64,000 nt of DNA from Trueperaceae bacterium. Its GTDB lineage: Bacteria; Deinococcota; Deinococci; Deinococcales; Trueperaceae. The DNA lies in the NCBI GenBank assembly GCA_965215565.1, contig CBDCDZ010000004.1, positions 1,760,001-1,824,000 of the forward strand, written 5' to 3'. This document shows positions 905 through 8,250 of the stretch, piece after piece. Made by a program: the position numbers and the translations under genes. A model generated the notes under the pieces. The model was not told the origin of the DNA. It worked only from the letters and a program-made list of their open reading frames with translations, and made no database searches. Positions within the stretch are counted from its first letter, which is position 1, and each line of letters opens with the position of its first letter.

Positions 905-963
905 AGCCTCATCTAGAAAGCCAGGACCTGCGCTGTTAGGCTGCTCGAGCCTAAAATTATGTT

Positions 964-993
964 ATCCTTACTTTACAGAAGTGAGGTAAGGAT
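964..993. promoter_or_regulatory. Inverted-repeat operator of the vapBC pair
   Basis: ATCCTTAC (964-971) ... GTAAGGAT (986-993), overlapping the antitoxin ATG. Confidence 0.55.
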
Positions 994-1225
994 GAAGAAC
1001 ACTGCCACCATAACGAGCAAAGGACAGATAACGATTCCTCAAGAGGTGCGCCAACGCCTCGGGCTCAAACAGGGCGATAAAGTTACCTTTGAGGTTGAGA
1101 ACGGTCTCACGGTGCTCAAACCTTACAGGGGCGAAGCAAATCCCTTTGCGGCCTATGCAGGTGCATTAGGCAGCCTTGAAACTGAAGAAGAGGTGGGCGC
1201 TTGGCTGAGCGACTTACGCGAGTAG
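992..1225 (+). CDS. AbrB/MazE/SpoVT-family antitoxin (VapB-like)
   Basis: ATITSKGQITIPQEVRQRLGLKQGDKVTF swapped-hairpin signature; upstream of a PIN toxin. Confidence 0.9.
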   Translation: MKNTATITSKGQITIPQEVRQRLGLKQGDKVTFEVENGLTVLKPYRGEANPFAAYAGALGSLETEEEVGAWLSDLRE

Positions 1226-1239
1226 GTGTCTAAGAACAG

Positions 1240-1665
1240 GTGCTTACAGCTATCGACACGAACATCATCAGCGCCCTCTGGTCACAAGAACCCGCCTCGG
1301 CAGGCGTCGCAGCGTCCCTCTTCGCTGCGCAGCAGCGAGGCGGACTCGTCATCTGCGCGGCTGTATACTGCGAACTCTTGGCATATCCGGGAGCGAGCAC
1401 GCCCTTCGTCCAGAAATTTTTAGACGACGCAGATATCCAAGTGCATTACGTTTTGAATGAGGCAGTATGGCGAGACGTAGGCGAGGCGTTTGCGGCGTAC
1501 GCGCAGCGCCGCAGAAGAGGTAAAGCCGGGCAGCCTAAACGTCTACTTGCAGATTTCATCGTTGGTGCTCACGCGCTTCACGCGGCAGACCGCTTACTTA
1601 CGTTGGACGTCAACCGCTATATCGCAAGCTTTCCAACCCTCGAGGTCATAGGACGAGAAACGTAA
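1240..1665 (+). CDS. PIN-domain toxin (VapC family)
   Basis: AIDTNII...VYCELL...LLADFIVGAHA...LLTLD acidic PIN motifs. Confidence 0.9.
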   Translation: MLTAIDTNIISALWSQEPASAGVAASLFAAQQRGGLVICAAVYCELLAYPGASTPFVQKFLDDADIQVHYVLNEAVWRDVGEAFAAYAQRRRRGKAGQPKRLLADFIVGAHALHAADRLLTLDVNRYIASFPTLEVIGRET

Positions 1666-1734
1666 ACCAAACGTAATCGCGGATGAAAAACTTCACGCCC
1701 CAACCTAGCACTGCAAGTGTTAGCATAAAAAACT

Positions 1735-2043
1735 GTGACGCTCCGCCTATTTTTCTTGACCATTTTAGTTCTCGCCTTGCCGCTCCCCGTACAACCTTGG
1801 AGCCTACCCAGCGGCGACGAGTCCTCGGGCATGAGCGCCCCCGTACCGATGGTGGCGGAACCTGCGCAGCGTCTCACGCTGCCAAGAGTCGGTAAAAGTA
1901 GCTTTCAGCTCTTACCCCCGCTTATCTCGAGCGTCACCGCCACAGTTTTCGCGGCTTATTTTATCTCTTCGACGTTCTGGGCGAGTACCGCGCAAAGGCG
2001 CACCTTTTTAGTGTTTGGGAAGCTGAGGCTCGAGGGGGGATAA
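1735..2043 (+). CDS. Signal-peptide-bearing uORF upstream of secDF; candidate translation-arrest leader
   Basis: Hydrophobic N-terminus (RLFFLTILVLALPLP), Pro/Ser-rich linker, C-terminus FGKLRLEGG-stop 83 nt before secDF; 3' codons complementary to the spacer. Confidence 0.65.
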   Translation: MTLRLFFLTILVLALPLPVQPWSLPSGDESSGMSAPVPMVAEPAQRLTLPRVGKSSFQLLPPLISSVTATVFAAYFISSTFWASTAQRRTFLVFGKLRLEGG

Positions 2044-2126
2044 AAGCTAAGACCTAACGGCTAATAGCCTATTCACCCAACCTCGAAACTCAAACCCTTT
2101 TAACCAAACAATTCAGGAGTAAGTAC

Positions 2127-4346
2127 ATGAATCAACGCTCATTCACGGGCATCCTCGTCCTTGGCGTGCTCTTAGCCGCCATTTTATACATGTGGCAGCC
2201 GTGGGCAGAGGACGCCTCGCTCAAGCTCGGCTTAGACTTGCAGGGCGGACTCCGCGTCGTGTTACAGTCCGACGACCCCAACCCCGTCCCCGAAGATTTG
2301 CAAGCCGCGCGGCGCGTGATTGAAAACCGCGTCAATGAATTCGGCGTGGCGGAGCCCGTCATCCAGACCTCAGGTGACAACCGCATCGTCGTGGAGCTTC
2401 CCGGCTTGACCGCCGAGGAGCAGAGCCGTGCGCAAGACCTCATCGGGCAGCAAGCGATTTTGGAGTTCCGCCTCGTCAGACCGGGCGCGAGCGAGCCTTT
2501 GACGCCCGATAAACTGCAACCGCCCGCCTTCACGGGTGAGGTGCTGCGCGGCGCGCAAGTCGCGTATGACCAGTTCGGACAGCCCATCGTGACCTTCCAA
2601 ATTCGCGGAGCTGACGCGCCTGCGTTCGGGCAATTTACGGGCAGCAACTTGGGTCAGCGCATGGCGGTTGTCTTGGACGGCAACGTCATCACCGCGCCGA
2701 ATATCAACGGGCGCATCGCAGAGAGTGGGCAGATCGAGGGGCAGTTCACGCTCGAGGAAGCCTCCGACTTAGCTCTCGTTCTCCGCTCAGGTAGCCTCCC
2801 CATCTCGCTCAACATCGAAGAGATTCGCGCCATCGGTCCAACACTGGGTCAAGACTCGGTTGCGGCGGGCACGACCGCCGCCATCATCGGCGGCATCGCG
2901 GTTGTCGCCGCTGTGATTCTCTACTACGGTCCGCTGTTCGGGGGCGTCTTGACCGTCGGTCTCATCTACGTGTTGCTGCTCATCTTCGGCATCTTGTCCG
3001 GTCTCGGCGCGGCGCTCACGCTGCCCGGTTTGGCGGGTCTCGTCCTGACCATCGGCGCGGCGGTAGACGGCAACGTCATCTCGTTCGAGCGCATCAAAGA
3101 GGAGCTGCGCGAAGGCAAGAGCTTGCGCCTCGCCATGCGGGGCGGCTTCGGCAACTCGCTCTCGGCGATCATCGACGCGAACGTCACGACGCTCTTGGCG
3201 GCGGCGGCGCTGTACCAGTATACCTCGGGTCCGGTGCGCGGCTTCGCCATCACGCTGGCGATCGGTATCGTCGCGGCGGTGTTTGTCAACACCGTCGTCG
3301 TGCCTTTTCTGCTCGACGTACTCACGGTGCGCTTCAAGAAGCCGTTTATGCCGAAAGGGTTCTACTTCGATAACCTCAAATTCGTTGGGCGTGCGCCTGT
3401 GGTGATGAGCATCTCGGGCGGGCTCGCGCTCTTAGCGCTCCTCATCGTGATTGTAAGCCCCTTAAATCTCTCGACGGACTTTACGGGCGGCACGAGTGCG
3501 CTCTACAGCGTCTCTGAAGAGACGACGATTGACGAGGTGCGCACCGCCATCAGCGAACTCGGCTTACCCGGCGTGGACGGCGGCTCGGCAACGGTGCAAG
3601 AGGTGCAAGACACGACAATCAGCACGGACGCCGCAGCAGCAGCGGGTACGGACAATGCTGAAGGAGAAGCGGCGGGCGCGAACAAGCTCCTCTCGGTGCG
3701 CATCGGTATCGGCGAGGACAGCGGCGCGAGAGGGGAGTTTCCTAACCTCTTAGCGGATCGGCTGAACGCGGAACTCTTACAAGCGGACTTCGTCGGACCC
3801 TCGGTAGGTGAAGACCTGCGCAACGGCGCGGTCTTGGCGGTGCTCGTCTCTTTAGGGCTGATTCTGCTCTACGTTGGGCTGCGCTTTTGGCCCAACTGGA
3901 TCGTCGCAGTCGCCGCGATTCTGGCGTCCATTCATGACGTCGGCATCGTGATGGGCTTTTTAGACCTCATCGGCGCGGAGTTCGGCGTGCCTGTTTTGGC
4001 GGCGCTCCTATTCGTCGTCGGTTACTCCTTGAACGACTCGATCATCATCGCGGACAGGATTCGCGAGAATTTGCGCAAGGTGCGCGGGCGTTCGTACAAT
4101 GACATCGTGGACCTCTCGGTGAGCCAGACGTTGTCGCGCACGGTGGTCACGTCCGGTACGACGCTCCTGCCCGTGTTGGCGCTCCTCTTCTTCGGCGGCA
4201 GCGTGCTGCGCGACTTTAGCATCACCCTCTTAGTGGGTATCGGCTTCGGGACGTACTCGAGCATCTTCATCCTCGCCCCGATGGTGGCGTGGTTCAAAAA
4301 GCGCCAGCGTAAACCTAAGGTGAACAGAAAGCCGAGCGCGGCGTAA
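2127..4346 (+). CDS. secDF: Fused protein translocase subunit SecDF
   Basis: LKLGLDLQGG, RIVVELPG, IGPTLG, GAAVDGNVISFERIKEE (SecD) plus DFTGG, VGPSVG, GYSLNDSIIIADRIRE (SecF); AGGAG RBS at 2115. Confidence 0.98.
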   Translation: MNQRSFTGILVLGVLLAAILYMWQPWAEDASLKLGLDLQGGLRVVLQSDDPNPVPEDLQAARRVIENRVNEFGVAEPVIQTSGDNRIVVELPGLTAEEQSRAQDLIGQQAILEFRLVRPGASEPLTPDKLQPPAFTGEVLRGAQVAYDQFGQPIVTFQIRGADAPAFGQFTGSNLGQRMAVVLDGNVITAPNINGRIAESGQIEGQFTLEEASDLALVLRSGSLPISLNIEEIRAIGPTLGQDSVAAGTTAAIIGGIAVVAAVILYYGPLFGGVLTVGLIYVLLLIFGILSGLGAALTLPGLAGLVLTIGAAVDGNVISFERIKEELREGKSLRLAMRGGFGNSLSAIIDANVTTLLAAAALYQYTSGPVRGFAITLAIGIVAAVFVNTVVVPFLLDVLTVRFKKPFMPKGFYFDNLKFVGRAPVVMSISGGLALLALLIVIVSPLNLSTDFTGGTSALYSVSEETTIDEVRTAISELGLPGVDGGSATVQEVQDTTISTDAAAAAGTDNAEGEAAGANKLLSVRIGIGEDSGARGEFPNLLADRLNAELLQADFVGPSVGEDLRNGAVLAVLVSLGLILLYVGLRFWPNWIVAVAAILASIHDVGIVMGFLDLIGAEFGVPVLAALLFVVGYSLNDSIIIADRIRENLRKVRGRSYNDIVDLSVSQTLSRTVVTSGTTLLPVLALLFFGGSVLRDFSITLLVGIGFGTYSSIFILAPMVAWFKKRQRKPKVNRKPSAA

Positions 4347-4447: not shown

Positions 4448-4831
4448 TCATTCAATTGTGGTGGCGAACTGCCGCACGATGCGCCCCTGAAAGGAGAGCA
4501 CCGCTCGCCACGTGCCGGGGCGAAGCGTCACGCGCTCGGGCGAGAAGAGCGTACCCGTACCCCTCTCGTATTCCGGCTCTATCCACACCGAGTCCGAGGC
4601 AACTTGATCGTTGTTCGGGGCGAACCACTGTACCGCCAACCAGTCCGCTCCAGGTACCTCGCCCACTACGAAATCCAATTTGAGCCTCTCCCCTTCCCTC
4701 GTCAGCCCTGTCGGGCTGCTGAGGTCAAAGACTTTCTCTCTAGTGCGCGCCTCGGGAACAGGCGGGATGTAGGTATAGGTACAAGCGCTGAGGAGCAGAA
4801 GTGCGAGTATCGGCAGGGTAAGTCGTTTCAT
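4448..4831 (-). CDS. Hypothetical lipoprotein
   Basis: MKRLTLPILALLLLSAC lipobox followed by a beta-rich domain. Confidence 0.8.
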   Translation of the reverse strand: MKRLTLPILALLLLSACTYTYIPPVPEARTREKVFDLSSPTGLTREGERLKLDFVVGEVPGADWLAVQWFAPNNDQVASDSVWIEPEYERGTGTLFSPERVTLRPGTWRAVLSFQGRIVRQFATTIE

Positions 4832-5785: not shown

Positions 5786-6568
5786 TCACGAGTCGCGCTC
5801 CCTCTGAGCCAAGATAAGCGCCCACTCCTCTTTATGTTCGACTGAATGAACCGTGAGGTGAGCCTCGAGCGCCCCTTTCGCCATTTCTAAGCGCTCATCC
5901 AGAATCCCCGTCGCCAAGAGCCAGCCGCCCGGACGCAAGGCGCGGCAGTACGCGCTAGCAAAGTCTACGTGCAGTTCGGCAAAGAGGTTCGCGGTGACAA
6001 TATCAAAGCCTTCAGATACGGTGTCGTCGAACGTACCGAGCCTAAAGGTCGCCTTCGAATGATTGAGGGCGCGGTTTTCTTCTGCCACGGGTAAGGTCAA
6101 GGGGTCAATGTCAATTCCGACGGCTTCGGCTGCGCCTAAGAGGTCAGCGGCAATCGTTAAAATGCCCGAGCCTGCGCCTACATCCAGAACTCGTTTATTT
6201 TTTAGTCGAAAGGTCTCGAGCGCAGCCAACGCAAGGTGCGTCGTCGCGTGGTGCCCCGTGCCGAACGCCATGCCGGGGTCGAGCCAGAGGACGCGGCGCG
6301 TTTCATCCGTTGGGATTTCACAGTGCGTCGGCGCGACGATGAGGTGCCCTAAATAAACAGGTTCAAGCTCTGCGTAATACGCCGCTAAGTAATCCGTCTC
6401 TTCAACCTCTTGCCAGGTGCCTTGTAGGGGCAGGGCGACCGCTTCAGCGAAGTACGCCACCACCTCATCACCCTCTTGAGCGATCCCGAGACAGCCCGCC
6501 TCCCACAAGAGAGAGGTCTCCACTTCTAAATTCTCCAACTCGCCCTGCATGTGGAATGAAACGCTCAT
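5786..6568 (-). CDS. prmA: 50S ribosomal protein L11 methyltransferase
   Basis: LDPGMAFGTGHHATT, VLDVGAGSGIL; start overlaps the upstream stop (ATGA). Confidence 0.95.
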   Translation of the reverse strand: MSVSFHMQGELENLEVETSLLWEAGCLGIAQEGDEVVAYFAEAVALPLQGTWQEVEETDYLAAYYAELEPVYLGHLIVAPTHCEIPTDETRRVLWLDPGMAFGTGHHATTHLALAALETFRLKNKRVLDVGAGSGILTIAADLLGAAEAVGIDIDPLTLPVAEENRALNHSKATFRLGTFDDTVSEGFDIVTANLFAELHVDFASAYCRALRPGGWLLATGILDERLEMAKGALEAHLTVHSVEHKEEWALILAQRERDS

Positions 6569-8250
6569 GCGAGTTCCTTGGGGTTGGCGACGCGCGCATC
6601 GCGGGTCACGATCTCGAAGCCGAGCCGCGCTCCCTCGTGCAGATAGAACTCGATATCGGCGCTCTTCGTCGCGCCACCTAACGACTTGCGGTGAAACGCC
6701 CGCGTCGCGCTCATGATCATCGTCTCTGCCATGCACGCGGGCACCATACCATCGCCAAAGTGCAAGTCGAGGTGGCTGCGCATCGCACCGGGCGGGCGCA
6801 CCACGCCGCCGGGGATGAGGTGGACGCCGGGAACCTCACGGACGCTCTCGTCCACGTCGGCAGGACGCCCGAGGTCGAAAATCCAAGCGCCGGGTTTGAC
6901 GTGGTGAGCGAACAGGACGGGCGCAGGATCAGAGGTCGCGGTGAAGATGAGGTCAGCCGTTTCGCACGCGGCAACGTCGGTGCTTATCTCAATCTGTGTA
7001 CCGGAGTATTTGCGGCGCAACGTTTTAGCACTGCGTTCTAAACGCGCTTCGTCTCGCCCGATGAGGATGAGACGCGCCACCTCTGGGGCGATGGTGCGGG
7101 CAACGCCAAAGGCGACGACGCCGTTTGCACCGATGATAGCGGCGCTCGAGCGCCCAAGCGCCCCCCCTTCCGCCTTGAAGCGCTTCAAGAGTCCCGGCAC
7201 CGCCGCCTTGACCGTCGCCGCCGTATACGCGCCGCCATTCGTGATGTGAATCTCCGGCACTGCCTCTTGCACTTTGAGCCCCTTCTCCCCTACCGTAGAC
7301 CAAAACGCGCCCAGCCCAAACGCCTCCGCGCCGAGTTCGTGCGCAAGCCGCGCCCCCTGAACCGCCAAGCGCGTCGCCTCTTCGGGATAGCGACGAATCT
7401 GCTCCGGGAACAAGGGACCGCTGAGGATCATCACGCGCAACTCGCGCCCGTCCGCCAATCGAATACCGCGCATCTCGTCCTGTTTTTGCGGACGCAAGAA
7501 GCGCAAAGCGCGGCGTATGAGGGAAAGCGGAATAACGCCGCGCTTTACCAGAAGACCGAGCCAACGCAAACTGCCTAGCTGCCAAACGTCGTCCATCGTC
7601 AGCGGGTGAATCATAAAGGCGGCGGTGACGACGTTCGGGTCTACGCCGCGCACGGGAGGCGGTTTGCCGAGCTTAGGCTCCGTCTGGTCCAAAATTCGCG
7701 CGAGCCCGACTTTGTGCCGCCACAGCCCTAAGATGAAGATGAGGCTTCCAACGAGCGTCAGCGGCGCAGGCTGAGAGACCCAAGCCAGGGTGAAAGCGAG
7801 CGTCAGAAGTCCCGCCACCGTCGCGAGCGTGATGTAACGACTCCAAGCGAGGAGAATAGCGTAGACCGCAAGTGGCGCGATTACGGTCCAAAGAGGGACG
7901 CCTGTGTAGACCCACAGCCCCACCAAAATCCCGAGGGTGACGCCGCTCCCTCTACCGCGCGGCACCTCGCCATAAGAAAGCCACGTCAGCGGGTAGAGAT
8001 GCCCCGCATATACTCCGAGCGCCACCCAGGGATTGCCCGCGAAAAGCGCCAGCACCGCGAAGCCTTTAAGCGCGTCTACGGCGAACGACGTGAGCACAGT
8101 GCCTACGCCGACGAAGCGCATCACGTTCTCGATGCCCAAGTTGTGCGCCGTCACCTCGCTCGGCTTGAGCCGCGTCGCCCAAACGACGAGGAAGCTACCC
8201 AAAGGTGACGAGCCGATGAGGTAGCTCGCTAAGAGGATGAGGGCGTCCAC
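6565..8250 (-). CDS. PlsY-like acyltransferase fused to an acyl-ACP-reductase-like Rossmann domain
   Basis: N-terminal YLIGSSPLG, DALKG, GHLYP, RH..LARI (PlsY-like); C-terminal AFMIHPL, GLGAFWS, TNGGAYT, GANGVVA, PACMAE (AAR-like). Confidence 0.85.
   Translation of the reverse strand: MDALILLASYLIGSSPLGSFLVVWATRLKPSEVTAHNLGIENVMRFVGVGTVLTSFAVDALKGFAVLALFAGNPWVALGVYAGHLYPLTWLSYGEVPRGRGSGVTLGILVGLWVYTGVPLWTVIAPLAVYAILLAWSRYITLATVAGLLTLAFTLAWVSQPAPLTLVGSLIFILGLWRHKVGLARILDQTEPKLGKPPPVRGVDPNVVTAAFMIHPLTMDDVWQLGSLRWLGLLVKRGVIPLSLIRRALRFLRPQKQDEMRGIRLADGRELRVMILSGPLFPEQIRRYPEEATRLAVQGARLAHELGAEAFGLGAFWSTVGEKGLKVQEAVPEIHITNGGAYTAATVKAAVPGLLKRFKAEGGALGRSSAAIIGANGVVAFGVARTIAPEVARLILIGRDEARLERSAKTLRRKYSGTQIEISTDVAACETADLIFTATSDPAPVLFAHHVKPGAWIFDLGRPADVDESVREVPGVHLIPGGVVRPPGAMRSHLDLHFGDGMVPACMAETMIMSATRAFHRKSLGGATKSADIEFYLHEGARLGFEIVTRDARVANPKELA

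Follow-up and report, generated by a model that had tools for sequence, protein, structure and literature searches.

A conserved leader open reading frame ahead of secDF in the Deinococcales: a candidate export-monitoring peptide with a Gly-Gly-stop ending

The window analysed here, a stretch of 64,000 nucleotides (nt) from a Trueperaceae bacterium (contig CBDCDZ010000004.1, positions 1,760,001 to 1,824,000), contains at 1735-2043 a small upstream open reading frame (uORF) that stands directly ahead of a fused secDF gene. We confirm that this uORF belongs to a conserved, single-copy family of leader open reading frames (ORFs) that is tied to secDF and present in all five Deinococcales families sampled. 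It is a real coding sequence whose peptide is under selection, and this peptide is laid out as an N-terminal signal, a variable linker and a conserved C-terminus placed at the stop codon; the last codons of the window's copy also take part in an mRNA hairpin. Judging from these sequence features, the product of the uORF is probably a leader peptide that senses Sec-dependent export and adjusts secDF expression through the stalling of its own ribosome.

Looking at the locus, the uORF product of 102 amino acids begins MTLRLFFLTILVLALPLPVQPW and has the C-terminus FLVFGKLRLEGG followed by TAA, and 83 nt separate this stop from the ATG of secDF. An earlier reading of this DNA, made from the letters alone (the sequence-only reading), had described the same uORF, ending and distance, and every coordinate checks out; its assignment to Deinococcota was also right, the genome being placed in the Trueperaceae, within the Deinococcales, by the record titles of its relatives. 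The 2127-4346 product matches Pfam SecD_SecF_C (2.6e-74), SecDF_P1_head, SecD_1st and Sec_GG, and this gene is the sole strong SecDF match in the window's own genome (G000). The uORF product itself matched no family in Pfam or NCBIfam, and Rfam at a permissive threshold matched no family in 1400-2400. The features of the locus are as follows.

1721..1729, + strand: possible −10 promoter element TAGCATAAA, with TGT before it, 5-8 nt ahead of the GTG; role putative.
1735..2043, + strand: uORF of 102 codons plus TAA, with a GTG start at 1735; candidate Sec-monitoring leader or arrest peptide, from the ORF listing and from homologues upstream of secDF.
1747..1791, + strand: N-terminal hydrophobic core, residues 5-19 (LFFLTILVLALPLPV), with Arg4 ahead of it; predicted Sec signal peptide or membrane anchor, by a hydropathy heuristic.
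1828..1848, + strand: second conserved block G-M-S-A-P-V-P, residues 32-38, with ..E..R after it; from alignments A1 and A2.
2005..2040, + strand: conserved C-terminal 12 residues (FLVFGKLRLEGG), candidate arrest element; from the codon table of 27 loci and a logo of 41 representatives.
2012..2035, + strand: 5′ arm of the hairpin, in the last uORF codons; in the minimum free energy (MFE) structure and the centroid of 2000-2135.
2041..2043, + strand: TAA stop, directly after Gly-Gly; proposed A-site codon of a ribosome that would stall here.
2081..2110, + strand: 3′ arm of the hairpin, in the C-rich, G-poor spacer, ending 4 nt ahead of the Shine-Dalgarno (SD) sequence; in the MFE structure and the centroid, and partly conserved in the genus.
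2115..2119, + strand: SD sequence AGGAG of secDF, from the sequence.
2127..4346, + strand: fused secDF, 739 amino acids, ATG at 2127, the presumed regulated gene; from Pfam.

The sequence-only reading had proposed gathering uORFs upstream of secDF across Deinococcota to see whether their C-terminus is conserved and their linker variable, and the loci strongly bear this out. We scored stop-to-stop frames ending at most 450 nt upstream of secDF at 39 loci, 30 of them from a search of 40 relatives and nine taken from the other families of the order. At 26 of these loci, [DE]GG-stop closes an ORF of about 95-150 codons just upstream of secDF. At eight others the ORF is recognisably homologous but ends differently, namely in LEG-stop (L064), RLQL-stop (L009), QWRL-stop (L029), RFGGG-stop (L022) and SRWNE- or SRWLE-stop (four loci of family f5). 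One locus (L008) was uninformative, its contig being too short; its contig end, 226 nt upstream of secDF in genome G009, holds five tandem copies of a unit of about 16 nt (TGATGGGGCGCTTGCC-like). In family f5 (L026, L027, L028 and L030) the homologous uORF ends about 300-440 nt upstream of secDF, has a signal peptide of the form ...LLARLLAVFLALQPWAFGAFAAP... and closes without Gly-Gly, as LARFSRWNE-stop at three loci and LAWYSRWLE-stop at one. Judging from its sequence, this ending possibly represents a second variant of the family's arrest motif. The SecDF of f5 carries an N-terminal extension (MSMKNRS...).

A second sample, fetched from public contigs by SecDF similarity, gave a [DE]GG-stop uORF at 29 of 38 loci; the two samples share genomes and are not independent of each other. 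Among the 41 loci of other phyla that this SecDF-similarity search also returned, a single one showed such an ending, in a G-rich frame with none of the other family features. The ending is also rare within the window's own genome, where 30 of the 61,709 stop-to-stop ORFs of at least 40 amino acids end in [DE]GG and the stricter pattern [RKQ][LRWYM]x[LSTQM][DE]GG is matched by the 1735-2043 uORF only. The profile built from alignment A1 retrieved 42 representatives at E ≤0.001 among 1.84 billion, and 41 of them end in [DE]GG, the remaining match (P0033) ending GRLLL. The A2 profile matched 110 of 363 genomes of the order (f1, 68/127; f2, 1/125; f3, 16/23; f4, 23/68; f5, 1/19), which is a lower bound, this profile having been built mostly from f1-type sequences; one of the matches (G329) is flagged unpublished. 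A profile made from four f2 uORFs matched 103 of the 125 f2 genomes with one copy each, bar one split match, and all 12 f2 loci fetched carry the ORF upstream of secDF, 11 ending in DGG-stop and one in LEG-stop. The family is thus essentially single copy per genome. Members are annotated at source only as 'hypothetical protein', in Oceanithermus profundus, Thermus composti, Thermus igniterrae, Meiothermus ruber and M. luteus among others.

We then studied how selection acts on the uORF. In a codon table of 27 loci, which includes the LEG-stop variant L064, both Gly positions use GGA, GGC, GGG and GGT, the acidic position is encoded by GAG or GAA (Glu) and by GAC or GAT (Asp), and the stop is TAA at 9 loci, TGA at 11 and TAG at 7. 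Across three genomes of the window's genus, the ratio of nonsynonymous to synonymous substitution rates (dN/dS) was 0.09-0.20 for the uORF, to be compared with 0.06-0.07 for secDF. Since all Gly codons and all stops are used and the dN/dS is 0.09-0.20, selection bears on the peptide and not on the RNA. Within the genus, the last 17 codons show 5-10 synonymous differences (about 13.5 sites) as against 1-4 nonsynonymous ones (about 37.5 sites); the linker has 20-26 nonsynonymous differences over about 86 sites, and the N-terminal 45 codons have 5-15 over about 99 sites. A spurious ORF is ruled out by the codon usage at the C-terminus, the rarity of the motif in G000 and the dN/dS values.

The peptides of the family share the same anatomy. 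Their N-terminus is short and basic and leads into a hydrophobic core, often ...LLPLPL...; by the hydropathy heuristic, R or K stands ahead of the hydrophobic 12-mer in 39 of the 42 representatives, with a median Kyte-Doolittle value of 2.58. Some 14-19 residues past this core comes the second block, of family form G-(M/L/F)-x-A-P-x-P ... E ... R, and the pattern G-hydrophobic-x-[AST]-[PGAST] is matched in 23 of 42 representatives. The Met of G-M-S-A-P was considered as the true start and rejected: several members have L or F there, and the hydrophobic segment upstream is in frame and conserved. The linker varies in length and sequence, with a mean column identity of 21-28% in alignments A1 and A2, and the core and the C-terminus are 45 to 124 residues apart, with a median of 88 (42 representatives; about 83 in the window). 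Conservation is highest in the last 9-13 residues, whose consensus, after a basic or aromatic stretch, is hydrophobic-L-x-hydrophobic-G-[RK]-L-[QRL]-L-[ED]-G-G-stop. In alignment A1, L99, G101 and G102 are invariant and position 100 is E or D, and in 26 of 26 canonical loci the motif directly abuts the stop. AlphaFold2 (AF2), run on a 40-sequence alignment, gave a predicted template modelling score (pTM) of 0.27 and no fold, with helices at 2-14 and 63-99 only; such an absence of a folded domain supports a leader peptide. The linker of the window's genus contains a second hydrophobic stretch, LLPPLISSVTATVFAAYFISSTFWAS (1912-1990, uORF residues about 60-85), which most other members are without; AF2 places it within the long helix 63-99, and it would still sit inside the exit tunnel with the ribosome at the stop.

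We looked at the start of the uORF as well. No SD-like sequence was seen on inspection before the GTG, and a block CAAGTGTTA[GC]CATAA[AT] is kept 5-8 nt ahead of it in three genomes of the genus (window 1690-1737; L001-L003, alignment A3 columns 60-85). From its sequence this block resembles an (extended) −10 box, and the uORF mRNA is possibly leaderless or nearly so. A scan of 1400-2400 for consensus promoters and terminators returned no promoter site and no intrinsic terminator. In family f2, TATGCT or TAGACT boxes stand 8 nt ahead of candidate TTG starts.

The way in which such a peptide would act can be outlined from this layout. The N-terminal signal would emerge and engage the Sec translocon with the ribosome about 80-90 residues from the end. 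On reaching the stop, the ribosome would hold ...G-[RK]-L-x-L-[ED]-G-G in its exit tunnel and peptidyl-tRNA(Gly) in its P site, and the nascent chain would hinder hydrolysis by the release factor, giving an arrest at the termination stage with either release factor 1 or release factor 2. Pulling by an active export machinery would quickly end the arrest; were export or SecDF limiting, the ribosome would stay. In the window, the parked ribosome would cover the 5′ arm at 2012-2035, the ribosome-binding site (RBS) would be easier to open and secDF translation would rise. We infer the stalling, its release by export and its coupling to secDF from the arrangement of the locus. A motif acting at termination fits the data because it abuts the stop in every canonical member and all three stops are used, and a stall with either release factor is proposed since TAA, TGA and TAG all occur.

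This layout can be set against known systems. Four in-silico features of Sec/YidC monitoring substrates are used in the part of PMC10987492 covered here (Fujiwara et al. 2024, Nat Commun), and the 1735-2043 ORF shows each of them: it is a small unannotated uORF directly upstream of a sec gene, it has an N-terminal secretion signal or transmembrane segment (by the hydropathy heuristic), its C-terminus is conserved, and its spacer exceeds 30 residues, the minimum in the family being 45. The same part of that paper describes arrest classes upstream of secDF in Bacteroidota and Clostridia whose N-A-P, N-S-P or D-G-M-K endings abut the stop; in these classes the stop codon occupies the A site of the stalled ribosome and is itself required. 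These classes, as described there, are the closest precedent, having likewise a uORF directly before secDF, an N-terminal signal, a long variable spacer and a C-terminal motif followed by the stop. Unlike them, the uORF described here ends in [ED]-G-G, has no Pro in its last 12 residues and belongs to the Deinococcales. It has no Pro, Met or Lys at its last positions and is therefore outside the N-A-P, N-S-P and D-G-M-K sequence classes, although it may work like them.

Other monitoring peptides share parts of this organisation. VemP, which precedes secDF2, is likewise a secreted leader peptide whose arrest is cancelled by export with induction of the downstream secDF. It arrests during elongation, a few codons before its own stop, and controls a second, alternative secDF paralogue; the Deinococcales motif, by contrast, lies directly at the stop, and only one secDF is present in G000. 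For Vibrio VemP, the early mature region is reported to contain a regulatory element (PMC11470409), and the discussion of PMC10987492 mentions elements within spacers. SecM, ahead of secA, and the RAPP/RAGP-type peptides (RQH family, ApdA, ApdP) also combine a signal, a spacer and a C-terminal motif with a stem that sequesters the RBS until the stalled ribosome opens it. As the sequence-only reading had held, the present motif is unlike theirs: the R/Q/H-A/G-P-P/G motif of SecM, ApcA, ApdA, ApdP and the RQH family does not occur within the last 14 residues of any tabulated member. Peptides of the RAPP/RAGP type arrest with Pro-tRNA in the A site, ahead of peptide-bond formation (PMC10951299 and PMC10951233), unlike the arrest that the Deinococcales sequences suggest, which would take place at termination.

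We could not find the motif ...RLQL[ED]GG-stop described in the literature searched. The words 'Deinococc', 'Thermus' and 'LEGG' are absent from the main text of PMC10987492; in the portion of its supplements covered, Deinococcota figure in the genome list and not in the arrest-peptide tables, among the rows listed. The main texts of Sakiyama et al. 2021 (PMC7897499) and of a 2025 EMBO J paper (PMC12992588) make no mention of Deinococcota, Thermus or LEGG. Searches on arrest peptides, monitoring substrates and secDF of Deinococcota or Thermus, with subscription journals outside their scope, found no Deinococcota member, and those for the motif strings, of the same scope, found no paper.

The link to secDF was studied at the level of the mRNA. 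All the arm coordinates of the nested pairings put forward in the sequence-only reading were present, and three helices, TGTTTGG (2012-2018) with CCAAACA (2104-2110), TGAG (2024-2027) with CTCA (2089-2092) and TCGAGG (2030-2035) with CCTCGA (2081-2086), occur in both the MFE structure and the centroid. The additional pairing it had thought possible, of CCU (2003-2005) with the AGG of the SD, appears in the MFE structure only and is absent from the centroid, the SD itself lying outside the helix. The 2000-2135 fold has an MFE of −36.1 kcal/mol (z −2.10), 7 of 200 dinucleotide shuffles being at least as stable; the window hairpin is real but only moderately better than chance. Its 5′ arm sequence is fixed by the LEGG codons among the three close sequences compared. 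To represent the stalled state, the nucleotides that a ribosome would cover with the last Gly codon in its P site were kept unpaired, and the RBS was taken as −18 to +6. In the window, the cost of opening the RBS went from 7.6 to 4.1 kcal/mol with the ribosome at the uORF stop, and RBS unmasking is a plausible route from the stall to secDF at this locus.

Several observations weigh against a secretion-monitoring leader peptide, or against this way of coupling it to secDF. The RBS-masking hairpin claimed in the sequence-only reading is supported for the window and not across the 26 loci, where the mean opening cost went from 8.5 to 7.9 kcal/mol, with a drop of at least 2 kcal/mol at four loci and of at least 1 at eight, and a rise of at least 1 at five. 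The unpaired probability of the SD was 0.44 in the free state and 0.44 in the stalled state (0.47 with a control footprint 30 nt upstream). As a general device of the family, masking of the RBS is on average supported neither by the opening energy nor by SD accessibility. In G001, a genome of the same genus (locus L002), an insertion of about 250 nt parts the hairpin from the secDF RBS and the uORF is intact. This insertion (A3 columns ~505-760) is flanked by the similar short sequences AACAG.GCA.CTCAG and may represent a small mobile element that has integrated at the RBS. The element is also dispensable, four of the 39 loci, from four genera (L017, L018, L020 and L021), having infB abutting secDF and no uORF. 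The endings without Gly-Gly (L009, L029, L022, P0033 and f5) mean that Gly-Gly may not be essential; given these endings, the sequences suggest that the shared core of the family may be L-[GA]-R-[LF] at positions −9 to −6. The G-M-S-A-P-x-P block lies outside the tunnel-proximal region, which might mean that the peptide has a function once released, and the failure to find YajC in any of 41 genomes of the order leaves room for the role of an accessory subunit.

This last role is the subject of an unlikely alternative, in which the uORF would encode a small exported or membrane-anchored SecDF subunit standing in for YajC, its C-terminus and its G-M-S-A-P-x-P block being protein contacts with no arrest element. 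YajC is a small single-pass protein whose gene lies upstream of secD in yajC-secD-secF operons. Like YajC, the uORF product is small, has a hydrophobic segment at its N-terminus and is encoded directly upstream of secD(F), the place that yajC holds in such operons. PF02699 was over its cut-off in none of the 41 order genomes (G000 and its 40 relatives), as against 7 of 14 control genomes; purifying selection acts on the N-terminal 45 codons as well, and the mid-peptide motif keeps its position. However, unlike YajC, the product has no hidden Markov model match, no similarity to any Pfam or NCBIfam family and no predicted fold (the pTM given above), its linker is free to vary in length and sequence, and its conservation is limited to short motifs and peaks in the last 9-13 residues, ending exactly at the stop; the uORF is moreover missing in several genera that are also without YajC. 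That the uORF could be YajC itself was ruled out, its product having no Pfam hit to PF02699.

The failure of RBS masking at most loci brings in another way of coupling, which keeps the stall at the stop and makes its effect transcriptional: the parked ribosome would block Rho loading on the C-rich spacer, with no opening of an RBS hairpin. TnaC, the leader peptide of the tryptophanase operon, stalls at its own stop by blocking the release factor, senses free tryptophan, acts on Rho-dependent termination and has no export signal. A stall at the stop beside an untranslated spacer is the tnaC arrangement, and is what is proposed here. The survival of the element in G001 in spite of the insertion between hairpin and RBS, the absence of an intrinsic terminator in 1400-2400 and the composition of the window spacer would all suit it, this spacer (2044-2126) being C-rich and G-poor (C 24, G 10, skew 0.41, and 0.67 in the 58 nt before the SD). 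Over 27 loci, however, the C-over-G skew is weak (mean 0.09, positive in 20) and close to that of the flanking coding sequence (0.05-0.07, positive in 19-21), and spacers as short as 52-65 nt give little room for Rho to load. We thus keep a tnaC-like block of Rho as an alternative route from the stall to secDF, and as a complete account of the locus we regard it as quite improbable. The chances are slimmer still that the uORF is conserved and translated but affects secDF with no sensing of secretion, for instance by holding the mRNA open as a constitutive leader, or that its function is unrelated, for example that of a small secreted peptide; its motif would then serve some other end, perhaps as a processing or degradation tag. 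Variant endings without Gly-Gly do exist, and the motif is superficially like the Gly-Gly C-termini of other contexts; but a linkage to secDF as tight and exclusive as that seen in five families, in a peptide that also bears an export signal and a spacer never shorter than 45 amino acids, is predicted by a monitoring peptide and not otherwise required, and the strict motif is found nowhere else in G000.

Taken together, we favour the secretion-monitoring leader peptide. A fuller version of it, which we put forward tentatively, as possible rather than probable, is that of an ancient Deinococcales arrest peptide, native to Thermus and Meiothermus, which would stall termination with Gly-Gly in the P site and with either release factor, by a chemistry new with respect to the Pro-dependent and RAPP classes. 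It might be read by SecDF and would then report SecDF activity rather than Sec flux. Such a SecDF-specific reading is suggested because the uORF precedes the only secDF of the genome and because the periplasmic block G-hydrophobic-x-A-P-x-P..E..R comes soon after the signal.

The other genes near the uORF were recorded as well. At 959-1665 (+) lies a VapBC-like antitoxin/toxin pair, of a MazE/AbrB-type protein (959-1225) and a PIN domain protein (1240-1665). It stands between the uORF and the usual place of infB, and the infB-uORF-secDF synteny of most relatives is broken in the window's genus. Further upstream, an ArsR-family helix-turn-helix regulator cut by the window edge (1-273, +) overlaps the start of an SdpI/DUF1648 membrane protein (254-904, +), forming an SdpR/SdpI-like immunity pair. 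Convergent with secDF is a small ORF (4448-4831, −) with a lipoprotein-type signal MKRLTLPILALLLLSAC... and no Pfam family, and at 6565-8250 (−) a 561-amino-acid ORF shows an unusual fusion of an N-terminal PlsY-type glycerol-3-phosphate acyltransferase with a Shikimate_DH/ornithine-cyclodeaminase-like NAD(P)-binding domain.

Arrest peptides that monitor export are known from a patchy set of phyla, and the domain-wide survey of PMC10987492, in the part covered here, lists none for Deinococcota. Reading raw sequence can reveal small, often unannotated uORFs such as this one that screens based on annotation may have overlooked. Were the uORF product instead a small partner of SecDF, it would close the gap left by YajC, which was not found in 41 genomes of the order. 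If the family does stall ribosomes, the repertoire would gain an entire phylum and, with ...RLQL[ED]GG-stop, a new motif. This would be a second, proline-free block of termination, working at all three stops, and would bear on how a nascent chain acts against release factors. Thermus ribosomes are much used in structural work, and a natural stalling sequence in organisms of the Thermus group would allow such work to be done directly.

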